Source of the DNA: Roseovarius sp.
GTDB lineage: Bacteria > Pseudomonadota > Alphaproteobacteria > Rhodobacterales > Rhodobacteraceae
Assembly (NCBI GenBank): GCA_021775255.1
Contig: JAJFIA010000009.1
Location: forward strand, 68,772 to 132,771
Length of the DNA stretch: 64,000 nucleotides
Direction: 5' to 3'
The translations under genes were made by a program, and so were the position numbers. Shown here one piece after another: positions 10,946 to 53,566 of this stretch; position 1 is the stretch's first letter; each line of letters begins with the position of its first letter. Under the pieces are notes generated by a model. The model was not told the origin of the DNA. It did not search any database and saw only the letters and a program-made list of their open reading frames with translations.

Positions 10946-11875
10946 TCAAACCGGATCGCGGATCAGGCTTTGGCACATGCAATGTACCCCGCCGCCGCCT
11001 TGGGTGATCATCGAAAGATCCGGGTCATAAATGGTAAAGCCCAGCGCCTTCAGTTTGGCTTTGAGGGTTTTTGAGCCATCCGGCAGCAAAACCCGGTCTT
11101 CGCCCAGCGCCACCACATTACACCCGAGCGCAATGGTTTCGCGAAACGGCACATCAACAATCTCAATCTGCTTGCTGCGCAGCCAGTCAACCACCTCAGG
11201 GTCGGTGCAATCAAGGCACACGGCGGCCAGTTTGGGCGCAAGCATCACCACCATCAGATCAATATGCACATAGAAGGGATCAATATCCGCCAGCCTGACC
11301 TCCCAACCCTCGGCCTCCATCCAGCGCGCCACCTGCTTTGCCCCCTGTTCCTGGGTGCGACCCTCATCGCCCTCCCAGCCGATCAAAACGCAACCGGGCT
11401 CGATCACGTTGAAATCGCCGCCCTCAAAAGTGCCGGCGGTAACGTAATCGTAAATCGGGATGCCAAGATTGTGGTAGGTTTCAATCGCGCGGAAGTTTTC
11501 GCCCCTGCGCCAGTATTGCGACATATGGGTGATAATGGCCCCAAACGGCGTCATCACCGAGCTGTCACGGGCATAGACCTGATAGGGCAGTTCCGGATCA
11601 GGCGCGTGCAGATGCACCTCAACCCCCGCTTGCCTGTAGGCATCCAGCATCTCGGCGTGCTGGGCTTTGGCAACGGCCAGATCAAACGGCACCCCCCGGC
11701 GGATGGTTTTCTTTGAGACCGAACTGGTATTCAGCCAGCGGTAATTTTCAATCGGTCCGAGCATGACAGACCTGAGCGTGCCATAATCAGAGTTTGCCCC
11801 CCAGGTGTTGAGCGTCGGCGTGCCGCCACCCTCAAGCCGGTTGCGCAGGGAAAATCCGGAGGGTTGATCACTCAT
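10946..11875 (-). CDS. Amidinotransferase/DDAH/arginine-deiminase superfamily enzyme
   Basis: YARDSSV, FEGGD, HID and C-terminal GGGGVHCM catalytic Cys motif; GAGG RBS before MSDQ. Confidence 0.85.
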   Translation of the reverse strand: MSDQPSGFSLRNRLEGGGTPTLNTWGANSDYGTLRSVMLGPIENYRWLNTSSVSKKTIRRGVPFDLAVAKAQHAEMLDAYRQAGVEVHLHAPDPELPYQVYARDSSVMTPFGAIITHMSQYWRRGENFRAIETYHNLGIPIYDYVTAGTFEGGDFNVIEPGCVLIGWEGDEGRTQEQGAKQVARWMEAEGWEVRLADIDPFYVHIDLMVVMLAPKLAAVCLDCTDPEVVDWLRSKQIEIVDVPFRETIALGCNVVALGEDRVLLPDGSKTLKAKLKALGFTIYDPDLSMITQGGGGVHCMCQSLIRDPV

Positions 11876-11960
11876 GGCCGGCCTCATTATGTTGTGCAAA
11901 GGCAGCCTCACCCGTGATGGGCTGGTGTGTCAAGTGGTGGGGTTCAGCAACGAACAAGCC

Positions 11961-11987
11961 AGAGGCCCCGGCGCGGGGGCCGGGGCG
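11961..11987. repeat. REP-like palindrome; 26/27 identical to the copy inside valS
   Basis: AGAGGCCCCGGCGCGGGGGCCGGGGCG versus AGAGGCCCCGGCTCGGGGGCCGGGGCG at 45186-45212. Confidence 0.85.
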
Positions 11988-12069
11988 CGGGATGAGCTAG
12001 AGGCCTCTGAATCAAGTCCGGCAATAAAGTCAGAAACAAAGGCAGGCACCCGTGAAAAGACGAAACTGA

Positions 12070-12774
12070 TCAAATACAGGCACAACCGACCATATAAGTG
12101 ATGGTTGTCGTGGTATAGATGATCCGCGAGCGTGGGATGACACTGATCGGAATTGCCACCGGGCTGCATTGCGGGCCGTCTTCATTGCCCTCCTCGCCAC
12201 AGCCGCCTGAACATGTCATCACCCGTTTGGCATGTGCCGTTGCTGCTTTGACTGCTGCGTTACGCGAAGTTCGGCTGCCAAATCGGCGCACGAATAGGGT
12301 GTGCGGCGTGGTGGTTGGGCCGGTACCGGTACAGGGCTTTCCCTGCGGCGCAATTTCGGCAACCGTGTCAAGCTCGGCGCTGATGGTGTAATAGGCGATT
12401 GCGATTGCGATCATTGCCAGAAGCAGCGCCATCAGAAACGCAACAATCGACGCGATCGTTACAGCGGCCCCGGCCCCGCCAACGGCCACCCCGCCAGCGG
12501 CGGCCCCATCGGTCACGATCACAGCCCCTTCACCTGCGGCCATCAGTTCGGCCGCCTCCATCAGCACCGCCAGCTGAATGCGCCCGGTATTGGCCAGCCA
12601 GATCAGCGCCCGCCAGAGGCTGGCGCGTTGGGCTGCGGTAGCGGCAGCGGCAAGGCGCGCGATTATCCCCAGCAATTCGCGCGCTGTGAGAGCACCGCCC
12701 CCGGCTGCAAGCTGACGCAGAATGGCCTGCATGTCGGGGCTGAGCGGTGCAATAATCTGATCAAACGGATTCAT
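12070..12774 (-). CDS. Hypothetical Ala/Gly-rich membrane protein with Cys-rich C-terminus
   Basis: GGGAG RBS before MNPF; hydrophobic stretch TIASIVAFLMALLLAMIAIAIAYY; six Cys in the C-terminal domain. Confidence 0.7.
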   Translation of the reverse strand: MNPFDQIIAPLSPDMQAILRQLAAGGGALTARELLGIIARLAAAATAAQRASLWRALIWLANTGRIQLAVLMEAAELMAAGEGAVIVTDGAAAGGVAVGGAGAAVTIASIVAFLMALLLAMIAIAIAYYTISAELDTVAEIAPQGKPCTGTGPTTTPHTLFVRRFGSRTSRNAAVKAATAHAKRVMTCSGGCGEEGNEDGPQCSPVAIPISVIPRSRIIYTTTTITYMVGCACI

Positions 12775-13008
12775 AATATACTCCCCTATTGTCAAAATAA
12801 TTTCTGGTATTTATCTGCCCGCTGAGATTGCGGAAAACAGCGCATTCAGCGGGGAATTCAAGCCAATACCAATACAATATGAGACTTGAAAACGACCCGG
12901 ATCCATTGGCACTCTACCACAGATTGCCGATTTTAGTGAATCCGGGGGGAAGATTGAGGAGAGGAAGAACAGGTACACCCGGCCCAGGGGCCGGGACATG
13001 GGGTGGAT

Positions 13009-38685: not shown

Positions 38686-38705
38686 GTGGGTTGCACCCAC
38701 CCTAC
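38686..38705 (-). repeat. GTAG-type REP
   Basis: Reverse complement GTAGGGTGGGTGCAACCCAC, matches 43325-43344. Confidence 0.85.
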
Positions 38706-43324: not shown

Positions 43325-43345
43325 GTAGGGTGGGTGCAACCCACC
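43325..43345 (+). repeat. GTAG-type REP
   Basis: GTAGGGTGGGTGCAACCCACC in the convergent racemase/valS gap. Confidence 0.85.
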
Positions 43346-43360: not shown

Positions 43361-46300
43361 TCAATCCAGCTCAGCCAGCCGCGCCAGCGCCGCGCGGAAT
43401 TTGCCCGCCTCTTCTTCACGCAAAGCAAGGTTTTCACGCGCCTCGGTAACCACCTCTTCCGGCGCCGAAGCCACGAATTTGGGGTTATTCACCCGGCCCT
43501 TGAGGCCCCCCATTTCCTTTTCAACCTTGCCTAAAGATTTCTCAAGCCGCGCTTTTTCTTCCTCAATATCAATGATATCCGCCAAGGGCATGCCAAAAAG
43601 CCCGCCCTCAACTGCCACGGTAACGCAGCCTTTGGGAAACGCCTTTGCATGGGTCAGGCTATCAATCCGCGCAATGCGCTTGATCATCACCTCATTGCGT
43701 GCCCAGGCCTGCGTACCCGCTTCATCCAGCTCGGTCACGATCACCGGGATTTTTAGCCCCGCCGGCACATGCATCTGCGCGCGGGCCGAGCGGATCGCCT
43801 CAATCAGGCCTATGACCCAGTTCATCTCACGGTCGGCGGCATCCTCGACCAGATCAGCGGCGGTATATTCCGGCCAGTCGGCATGAATGAGCATCTTGTC
43901 GCGGCTGCAACCCGTGCCCCAGATCTCTTCGGTGATGAACGGCATTATGGGATGCATCAGGATCAGGCATTGATCAATCACCCATCCCATTGTCGCCTGG
44001 GTCTCGGCCTTGGTGGCAGCGTCGCCATCCAGCAAAAGCGGCTTGGAAAACTCCACATACCAGTCGCAGACCTTACCCCAGACAAAGGCATAAAGCGCGT
44101 GGGCGGCATCAGAGAAACGGTATTGCGCAAGCGCGGCATCCACCTCTTCGCGCACCTTGGCGGTTTCGCCAATGATCCATTGGTTTACGGTGGCTTTGGG
44201 CGCGGGCCTTATGCCGCCGCCAACCGCGCCATTCATCTCGGCAAATCTAGCGGCATTCCACAGCTTGGTGCCAAAATTGCGGTAGCCGGTGATGCGTTGC
44301 GTTGAAAGCTTGAGATCCCGGCCCATGGCGGTGAGGGTAAAGCGCAGGGCATCCGCGCCGAACTCATCAATCAGCTCCAGCGGGTCCAGCACATTACCCA
44401 CGGATTTGGACATCTTCTTGCCCTTCTCATCACGCACCAGCGCGTGGACATAGACATCCGAAAAGGGTTTTTCGCCAACAACGGCATATTGCATCATCAT
44501 CATCCGGGCGACCCAGAAAAAGATGATGTCAAAGCCAGTGATCAAGACCGATGTGGGGAAGTATTTCTTCAGTTCCGGCGTTTCCTCAGGCCAGCCCAGC
44601 GTGCCGATGGGCCAGAGACCGGAGGAGAACCATGTGTCGAGCACGTCGGGGTCGCGTTCGAGAAATACGAAGACAGAGTCGTTGTAGTCGCCGCCGACTT
44701 GGCCAGTTCTTGCGAGCTTGCGGCCACTTGAATCGGTTCGTTCACCACCAAAGGTGGCTTCTCGTACGACAATAGAAGTATTGGGATAACGCTTAGCGTA
44801 CTTCTCCCGCGCCTTTTCAAAAGCCTCTTCTTGGGTCGCCGCGCAGAACATCTCGTCGGGTAGAGGACCATATTCAACAAGTGGTTCCGCTTCATCCGCT
44901 CGAATCCCATCGACATTCGGCCCATACCAAACCGGGATCTGATGCCCCCACCAGAGCTGGCGGGAGATGCACCATGGCTCGATATTCTCCAGCCAGTGGA
45001 AATAGACCTTGCGGTCAGCCTCGGGCATGATGTTGACCTCGCCTTCGCGCACCGCGTCAATCGCGGGTTGCACGATCTTGGCGGTATCGACAAACCACTG
45101 ATCGGTCAGCCTCGGCTCGATCACCACCTTTGAGCGGTCGCCAAACGGCTGCATGATGGGTTTGGATTCCACATAGGGGATAAGGAGAGGCCCCGGCTCG
45201 GGGGCCGGGGCGGGTTCGCCCTCCCCGTCCCGGACTTGATCCGGGACCTCCACCATAACCGCCAGCCCTTCGGTTGTGATCTGTGCAACCACCTTTTCAC
45301 GCGCCTCAAACCGGTCCAGCCCGCGCAGATCGTCGGGGACAAGGTTGAGCGTATCAACCTCCGCGCCGGTGAGATCCGCCCCGTTTGCAATCTCCTGTGC
45401 GCGTCTGGCGCAGGTGGCGTAATCGTCACCGTCATCGCGCATCCGGGCTTTGGTATCCATCAGCCGGTACATCGGGATATTGCCGCGCTTGGCAACCTCA
45501 TAGTCGTTGAAATCATGCGCGCCGGTGATTTTCACCGCCCCCGAGCCGAAATTGGGATCGGGATAGTCATCGGTAATGATCGGGATCATCCGGCGGAATT
45601 CTTTCGGCCCCACCGGAATTTCACAGAGCTTGCCCACGATGGGCGCATAGCGCGCGTCTGATGGATGCACCGCCACCGCGCCATCGCCGAGCATGGTTTC
45701 AGGCCTTGTGGTGGCGATCGAGATGTAATCGCGGGTCTCAGTCAGCGTCACATTGCCGTCTTCATCGCGCTCGATATATTCGTAAGATTCGCCATCCGCG
45801 AGCGGATATTTGAAATGCCACATATGGCCAGGCGTCTCGATATTTTCGACCTCAAGATCGGAAATGGCGGTTTCAAAATGCGGATCCCAGTTGACCAGGC
45901 GTTTGCCGCGATAAATCTGGCCTTTGTTGTACATATCGACAAACACCTTGAGCACGGCGTCATGGAAATTGCCCTCTTCGCCCGCAGGCGCGCCGGGGGC
46001 ACCGGACATGGTAAAGGCCGTGCGTGACCAATCGCAGGACGCGCCAAGGCGTTTGAGCTGATTGAGGATCGTGCCGCCGGATTCCTGCTTCCACGCCCAG
46101 ACCTTCGCCAGAAATTCCTCGCGGGTGAAGTCGGTGCGCTGCCTGCCCTCTTGGGCCAACTGCCGCTCGACCACCATCTGCGTGGCGATGCCTGCGTGAT
46201 CCATGCCCGGCTGCCACAGCACATCGAACCCGCGCATCCGGTGCCAGCGGATCAGGATATCCTGCAACGTGTTGTTGAAGGCGTGGCCCACATGCAAGGA

Positions 46301-46450
46301 GCCCGTCACATTCGGCGGCGGGATCATGATCGAGAAGGTTTCCGCGCCCGGTTTGGCATTGGCCCCGGCGGCAAAGCATCCGGCCTTTTCCCACGCTGCA
46401 TAAAGCCGGGTTTCGGCAAGGCCTGCATCAAATTTTGTTTCCATCGCCAT
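43361..46450 (-). CDS. valS: Valine-tRNA ligase with several insertions
   Basis: [13 protein letters not shown] (HIGH), [42 protein letters not shown]. Confidence 0.98.
45185..45250. repeat. In-frame REP doublet inside valS (22 codons)
   Basis: Hairpins GCCCCGGC-TCGGGG-GCCGGGGC and GTCCCGGA-CTTGA-TCCGGGAC, in opposite orientations. Confidence 0.8.
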
Positions 46451-53545: not shown

Positions 53546-53566
53546 GTAGGGTGGGTGAAACCCACC
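53546..53566 (+). repeat. GTAG-type REP inside the F0 operon (atpB-atpE gap)
   Basis: GTAGGGTGGGTGAAACCCACC. Confidence 0.85.

Follow-up and report, generated by a model that had tools for sequence, protein, structure and literature searches.

The source study of the Rickettsia palindromic elements (RPEs) is said to be that of Ogata et al. 2000 (Science 290:347). RPEs are described, in PMC10969869, PMC3184786 and PMC3733652, as selfish palindromes that have entered housekeeping genes without disrupting the reading frame, at positions judged to suit the fold of the protein. Two of them, RPE-4 and RPE-6, have been equated with CGTC-4 and CGTC-1 (PMC3733652), that is, with repetitive extragenic palindromes (REPs) named after a terminal tag. 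CGTC- and GTAG-tagged REPs are found most often in alphaproteobacteria, and intragenic dimers of these elements, encoding 20–30 amino acids, have been catalogued there (Di Nocera, De Gregorio & Rocco 2013, BMC Genomics 14:522; PMC3733652). CGTC families occur mostly as head-to-head (HH) dimers with a conserved spacer, while tail-to-tail (TT) dimers are rare and have variable spacers (PMC3733652). The genome examined here is that of Roseovarius sp. (G000; 3.40 Mb in 27 contigs, 57.7% GC, 99.7% complete), and the window is a stretch of 64,000 nucleotides from contig JAJFIA010000009.1 that includes valS, the gene for valine-tRNA ligase (ValRS). A pair of palindromes within valS is very probably a TT dimer of a CGTC-type REP family. 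It keeps the reading frame and encodes part of a hypervariable loop on the ValRS surface, where it most likely represents an old allele that is tolerated by the enzyme. A preliminary description of the window had considered this route of peptide formation to be little documented in this lineage, a view that does not survive comparison with the published catalogue (PMC3733652). The valS gene itself is outside the published list, and no mention of Rhodobacteraceae was found in the text of that study.

The product of valS matches the ValRS of Thermus thermophilus (1GAX; E = 1e-174) and is the sole ValRS of the genome, giving one full-length match in G000. The preliminary description of the insert, as 66 nt or 22 codons made up of two palindromes in opposite orientation within the reading frame, is borne out by the sequence, in which both 28-mers are present. 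The coding strand (45250→45185) reads GAG GTC CCG GAT CAA GTC CGG GAC GGG GAG GGC GAA CCC GCC CCG GCC CCC GAG CCG GGG CCT CTC, which resolves into the 24 nt of unit B, 15 nt of spacer, unit A in reverse complement (25 nt) and a final TC (Table 1). Unit A is read by valS on its reverse strand, as APAPEPGPL. To judge from the intact reading frame, the whole insert is presumably translated. The base following unit B is a G, so that on the opposite strand the unit is CGTC-tagged. Unit B reads CGTCCCGGACTTGATCCGGGACCTC on that strand and unit A reads CGCCCCGG..., a CGCC variant. Units of the family start with CGTC or CGCC on the opposite strand and end in a 3-nt tail, and genome-wide the variable position of the tag is either T or C.

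Both units belong to a dispersed, mostly intergenic family of palindromic repeats. The pattern GAGGYCCCGGN{5,8}CCGGGRC finds 74 exact units across the genome, a reversed control pattern finds 0, and a looser unit definition gives about 119. The repeat does have many other copies in the genome. Units identical to unit B occur elsewhere in G000 and also in G008, G020, G047, G051 and L145. Exact copies of unit A lie at C5:29205 (in pdhB), C27:125801 and C27:125838 of G000. The free copy of unit A noted earlier, 26/27 identical over window positions 11961–11987, does lie between two open reading frames (ORFs); extended to a 28-mer the match has 2 mismatches, and 0/100 shuffled sequences gave such a match. 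Chance palindromes and low-complexity Pro/Gly coding sequence were ruled out by the exact multi-copy matches, the 0 control matches and a hairpin scan along the whole of valS. In 103 valS sequences, no REP-like 8-bp hairpins were detected outside the loop; the perfect 8-bp hairpins found elsewhere in the gene are conserved coding palindromes and not REPs.

The usual element in this genome (n = 29) is a dimer of about 65–70 nt, in which the GAGG ends point inward across a 12-nt spacer: [C-N-C hairpin CCTC]-N12-[GAGG hairpin G-N-G]. The two valS units have the opposite, TT arrangement, with GAGG ends outward and tags inward, a point on which the preliminary description was silent. This is the only GAGG-outward pair in the dimer census, and a degenerate TT-like pair is also present in ftsY.

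The family resembles the published CGTC REPs in several respects (PMC3733652). Both are short GC-rich palindromes with an 8-bp stem, in which one end bears a CG(T/C)C tag and the opposite end a 3-nt tail, and both are mostly intergenic, with a minority of copies in frame, HH-dominated dimers, rare TT pairs of variable spacer and no dedicated transposase. The published tag is CGTC, with TGTC and CCTC as allowed variants, to which the CGTC of unit B and the CGCC variant of unit A correspond; the 29 tag-outward dimers reflect the dominance of the HH form, and the spacers of the valS TT pairs are unrelated between species. The published stems are 8–9 bp with loops of 4–5 nt; here both stems are perfect over 8 bp and the loops are 5 nt (B) and 6 nt (A). 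The published tail is CCA and the first stem pairs are A/T, whereas here the tail is CTC (GAG on the other strand) and the first pairs are G:C and T:A/C:G.

Other known systems fit less well. RPE-1 shares with the valS pair the nature of a selfish palindrome in frame in a housekeeping gene. As portrayed in its sources, it is 100–150 bp long, encodes a conserved peptide of about 45 residues, has an obligate intracellular, AT-rich host and has nearly half of its copies within genes; the units described here are 24–25 nt, with a canonical dimer well short of that length, and belong to a free-living marine bacterium in which about 10% of copies are intragenic. The REPtrons of Enterobacteria and Pseudomonas, composed of REPs or bacterial interspersed mosaic elements (BIMEs) and a REP-associated tyrosine transposase (RAYT), likewise show dispersed hairpins in HH and TT dimers. 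Unlike their GTAG-tagged units with a cognate RAYT, the valS units are CGTC/CGCC-tagged, and a search for Y1/RAYT transposases (PF01797, Y1_Tnp) gave 0 matches in G000, with control genomes detected. Among 31 congeners PF01797 matched in 6 only, and the other REP-rich genomes examined here (G020, G008, G003, G012 and G018) were without it. With regard to the target-site duplications of miniature inverted-repeat transposable elements, no clean filled/empty pair was present, the loop alleles seeming to differ by recombination rather than insertion. A search for literature on REP elements in Roseobacter or Rhodobacter returned nothing specific. Beyond the published accounts found are the reuse of one loop by several families, the presence of a TT allele across genera, and the conservation of silent sites within a gene.

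The insert aligns between residues 329 and 349 of 1GAX, a site which we take to be the C-terminal edge of the CP1/editing insertion. In the ValRS of other alphaproteobacterial families the sequence ...QGL is directly joined to LEKIDDH and the whole loop is missing, while 102/103 Rhodobacteraceae sequences have extra residues at the loop, its length ranging from 0 to about 50. An AlphaFold2 model (53-sequence alignment; mean pLDDT, the predicted local distance difference test, of 79) places residues 401–422 as coil with a pLDDT of about 50–56, between short strands at 399–401 and 423–425. The structure prediction proposed earlier thus models the insert as the expanded tip of a beta-hairpin, in the form of a low-confidence coil.

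Of the top 120 protein clusters in a database search seeded on ValRS residues 360–470, at least 30 have the same design. It runs V-EVP[D/G]Q[V/A]RD, then a spacer that varies, then (A)PAPEPGP, followed by two further residues and IPYVE. Carriers include Marinovum, Phaeobacter, Parasulfitobacter, several Roseovarius and many metagenome-assembled genomes. G020 shares the allele, and Roseovarius mucosus has a decayed form that has lost unit A. The nearest relative from this search is L145, whose ValRS shows 78% amino acid identity (81% over residues 360–470), and whose two units are 24/24 and 25/25 identical to those of G000. At the DNA level, 11 alleles were compared; these were picked by protein similarity to the loop and not by their silent sites, and are mutually related. 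The right junction (PGP, two residues, then (I/V)P(Y/F/L)V) is constant in 10/11 of them, the deviations being L147, with 3 residues, and R. mucosus, without unit A. The left junction shifts by 0–6 residues, and the spacers between the units are unrelated in both sequence and length. The same two units and the same right junction, combined with wholly diverged spacers in G020, L145 and many genera, indicate that the allele is old and shared among many Rhodobacteraceae.

This distribution bears on the implicit picture of the preliminary description, in which a recent insertion specific to this lineage would have given the ValRS of this strain a brand-new peptide. Such an event would account for the identity or near identity of both units to intergenic copies in the same genome, and for the fact that the protein forms a singleton cluster in a 5.8-billion-protein database, but it is very unlikely given the shared units, junction and diverged spacers just described. 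The part of the earlier claim that stands is the derivation of the loop codons from a non-coding repeat; a new event private to this strain is contradicted by an allele common to many Rhodobacteraceae. The alignment of relatives divides in the same way: outgroups lack the whole loop, and the 22-residue indel is no private feature of this lineage.

The spacer codons GAG GGC GAA CCC match those for the EGEP of REP-free 'NPxAGxEGEPxxIPYVE' loops at 12/12 positions in L036 and 11/12 in L063, and the L147 allele retains an IPNPAAA prefix. Because of this codon match and prefix, the doublet is best read as two units that would have come to flank a remnant of the older loop (GEGEP), rather than as a single transposed dimer.

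Outside this allele the loop is highly variable. When valS is placed in a tree from which the loop columns are excluded, the loops fall into a few discrete types that recur here and there over the family, including ENDQGE, TxTxKDEDGxxxTVTVP, DPRLGK...APEEGGEA, PGEPNEDGNVCFDGG and NPxAGxEGEP, and sister species frequently differ in loop type. The valS genes of G008 (L013) and G018 (L016) are about 92–96% identical and have different loops, with only 77–82% identity in the approximately 40 nt on each side. This pattern suggests that loop alleles are swapped between lineages by short-tract recombination, in the manner of cassettes. Within the genus, a sliding nearest-neighbour scan along valS did not reveal a distinct recombinant tract around the loop common to G000 and G020; the nearest neighbours change everywhere. 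Unrelated loop types were also observed in the close valS pairs L077/L078 and L039/L042, as in L013/L016, with identity falling over the approximately 40 nt that border the loop, and discrete types recur in distant genera.

REP-like dimers of several families occupy the valS loop in at least 11/103 species-representative sequences. The GAGG/CGTC family is found in G000, G020 and L077, the last with a canonical HH dimer within a DPRLG-type loop. Dimers of GTAGGCCGGG are present in G003, G008 and L044, the ATCC(T/C)CGG family in L011, L050 and L095, and GTAGGGTGGGT in L103 and L081. The REP family in valS is generally the one resident in the same genome. G000, G020 and G047 (the genome of L077, with 73) have 73–76 GAGG units each, G003 has 46 GTAG units of the GTAGGCCGGG family and 0 GAGG units, and G048 has 12 GTAG and 3 GAGG units. 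An orthologue from a genome lacking the GAGG family therefore behaves as the earlier proposal predicts, G003 being without the peptide and having its own GTAG units at the site. The exception to the rule of residence is G008, where the valS units are a variant rare in its own genome, which fits the import of an allele. The L077 dimer and the dimers of other families represent independent arrivals of REPs at the same loop.

Unexpectedly, the units are conserved even at synonymous sites. In synonymous codon pairs of the 11 alleles, third-position identity is 0.90 in unit B and 0.93 in unit A, compared with 0.56 in the flanking EGLAVM codons and 0.65 in the PYVExKPIMQ codons. The non-preferred codons GAT, CAA and CGG are kept across genera within the units, so codon bias does not explain the conservation. 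In an alignment of the stems of both units, pairing is intact in 96.5% of cells. At the innermost position of each stem both partners have changed together in 4 sequences (A:T<->G:C for unit B, C:G<->A:T for unit A). None of 500 shuffles (0/500) reached the observed covariation score. The corresponding protein residues are D-V in 15 loops and G-A in 12, and 6 loops have combinations whose codons would break the pair (A-A in 4, D-A in 1 and E-A in 1). Decay does occur, as the pairs are broken in L147, L149 and L153 and unit A has been lost in R. mucosus.

Covariation of this kind speaks against selection on the peptide rather than the DNA, by which a loop rich in proline and acidic residues would have a protein role, for example as an interaction surface, its palindromic coding being incidental. 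The recurrence of the EVPDQVRD and PAPEPGP motifs in ValRS, IleRS, FtsY, NrdJ and pyruvate dehydrogenase (PDH) linkers would be expected on that account. It is nonetheless highly implausible, since residues 4 and 6 covary as base pairing predicts (D-V, G-A), synonymous positions are conserved, about 65 intergenic copies have the same sequences, the sequence that separates the two motifs varies freely, and the model contains no ordered structure.

Another reading is that the hairpins are a functional nucleic-acid element of valS kept by selection, such as an RNA structure at which ribosomes pause once the editing domain has emerged, an obstacle to RNases or a site for a REP-binding protein. In its favour are the excess of silent-site identity over flanking invariant codons, the retention of CAA, GAT and CGG across genera, the compensatory changes in both stems, and the predicted fold of the valS mRNA segment (−51 kcal/mol, z = −2.3). 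Most Rhodobacteraceae ValRS, in contrast, are without the element or have unrelated loops, and some alleles are decaying, as in R. mucosus and the three sequences with broken pairs. The family is equally intact at about 65 intergenic sites, so that conservation may belong to the family as a whole and not to valS. An Rfam scan of valS and a promoter/terminator scan around the insert gave nothing relevant, and readings of the hairpins as a riboswitch, attenuator or terminator were rejected on that ground. On balance such a functional role is unlikely.

In the preferred reading, a tolerated REP dimer occupies the tip of a beta-hairpin where the CP1/editing insertion ends on its C-terminal side. 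The REP would be read in two of its stop-free frames, as EVPDQVRD and APAPEPGP, both rich in Pro, Asp, Glu and Gly. Most likely these peptides amount to a disordered extension that is no more than tolerated by the enzyme, and short-tract recombination would pass loop alleles from one lineage to another. The likely causes of hairpin upkeep at the nucleotide level are gene conversion from the genomic REP pool (concerted evolution), whose consensus does not differ between genera, self-templated correction of the palindrome, or selection on the DNA or RNA hairpin.

Several points weigh against this reading. The conservation at silent sites exceeds that of a decaying passive passenger, and 'merely tolerated' may be an incomplete description. 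The TT-allele DNA was chosen by protein similarity to the loop and is phylogenetically non-independent, which inflates the significance of the covariation statistics. The family is placed in the CGTC superfamily, and in none of CGTC-1 to -4 in particular, because it resembles the published description, the tail being CTC and not CCA and one loop having 6 nt. The valS junctions (ATGGTG|GAGG ... CCTC|TCCTTATC) show no evident target-site duplication, and no transposase was found.

The search for other recruited loops proposed in the preliminary description was productive. Seven of the 74 exact units (7/74) lie within 6 real genes, two of them in valS and one each in ileS, pdhB, pdhC, ftsY and nrdJ (Table 1), and degenerate partner units are present in ileS, pdhB and ftsY. 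Further units were flagged at C1:23907 (1) and C27:125801–125862 (2), probably in mis-extended N-termini. Against a coding fraction assumed (and not measured) to be about 85–90%, this is a strong depletion from genes. In-gene units are mostly in two frames, E-[VIA]-P-x-Q-x-x-x and A-P-x-x-x-P-G-P. There is a striking agreement between these host proteins and those in Additional file 3 of the alphaproteobacterial catalogue, which lists IleRS and GlyRS-beta (Erythrobacter litoralis), PDH E1/E2 (Sphingopyxis alaskensis) and FtsY (O. terrae) (PMC3733652), the counterparts here being ileS, pdhB/pdhC and ftsY. The ileS dimer is at the start of the editing domain. The same IleRS loop has dimers in G018 and G012, a single unit in G019, and a short form in G008, which is close to G018. 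Independent colonisation of the ValRS loop and of one IleRS loop most likely reflects a very small number of permissive sites in essential genes under continual REP insertion.

Table 1. Positions of valS, its REP units and related elements. Coordinates without a contig label are window positions.
Feature	Position	Strand	Description	Location or basis
valS (valine-tRNA ligase, ValRS)	43361..46450	minus	1029 aa, intact	ORF and translation; Pfam tRNA-synt_1, Anticodon_1, Val_tRNA-synt_C
In-frame insert	45185..45250	minus	66 nt, 22 codons, ValRS residues 401-422	sequence, translation
REP unit B	45227..45250	minus	GAGGTCCCGGATCAAGTCCGGGAC; 8-bp stem, TCAAG loop; peptide EVPDQVRD	
Spacer	45212..45226	minus	15 nt, GGGGAGGGCGAACCC (G-EGEP)	
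REP unit A	45187..45211	plus	GAGGCCCCGGCTCGGGGGCCGGGGC; 8-bp stem, 6-nt loop	
Intergenic copy of unit A	11962..11989	plus	26/28 identical	between same-strand ORFs 10946-11911 and 12070-12795
ileS	G000:C27:120624-120682 (L111/L115)		canonical HH dimer of GAGG family, RRPGPRSGASTSVEIPGQARD	between FTIWVKFAV and DLQGAYVVIWTTTPWT
pdhC (PDH E2)	C5:27807-27831		1 unit	linker
pdhB (PDH E1-beta)	C5:29145-29229		2 units	lipoyl-linker region
ftsY	C21:50538-50562		unit of a TT-like pair, EIPDQAGD...PAPGPDPGP	N-terminal acidic domain
nrdJ (class II ribonucleotide reductase)	C21:312697-312720		EAPDQARG	
glmM	C1:302212-302231		one GTAG-family unit	
GTAG-tagged unit of second family	43325..43344 (G000:C26:112096-112115)	plus	GTAGGGTGGGTGCAACCCAC	17 nt past valS stop codon

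It is possible, though this is put forward tentatively, that the ValRS loop and the matching IleRS loop form a recombination-shuffled landing pad for REPs, in which lodged units are actively kept in REP form over the long term, to judge by the silent-site conservation and the compensatory stem changes across genera. If so, a sequence-specific process would act on REP hairpins even within essential genes, the candidates being an enzyme that recognises REPs in trans, gene conversion by the genomic copies, or hairpin selection. With the present case, valS and the marine Roseobacter group join a set of essential genes and lineages whose protein loops owe some of their sequence to selfish palindromes, and a few permissive sites (the ValRS and IleRS loops, PDH linkers and the FtsY N-domain) are seen to be reused in unrelated bacteria. 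Orthologous intragenic REPs across genera provide a natural experiment in which selection at the protein level can be subtracted codon by codon, and the question of REP maintenance, by selection, conversion or re-insertion, becomes testable at a defined locus. In annotation, care is needed not to take such loops for lineage-specific functional domains.

Two GTAG-tagged families are also present in the genome, GTAGGCCGGGCTTAAGCCCGGC with 28 pattern matches, where the two strands of a single palindromic site are in some cases counted separately, and GTAGGGTGGGTGAAACCCAC with 75 matches, yet no RAYT gene was found in it. Units of the form GTAGGGTGGGTG(A/C)AACCCAC (GTAG-tagged, 75 per genome) occur in the window at 43325–43344, 38686–38705 and 53546–53565. 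Within valS, residues ~512–597 (window 44660–44917) constitute a second hypervariable region, where an insertion of about 80 residues replaces about 15 of T. thermophilus; even among congeners it can hardly be aligned (DNA identity 0.4–0.5), and it is partly of low confidence in the model. Residues ~149–160 (window 45971–46006) include a 10-residue insertion relative to T. thermophilus ValRS, the DNA of which contains an 8–9 bp palindrome in several relatives, for example TCCGGCGCCCCCGGCGCGCCGGA. This insertion may be an older, fixed sequence derived from a palindrome.

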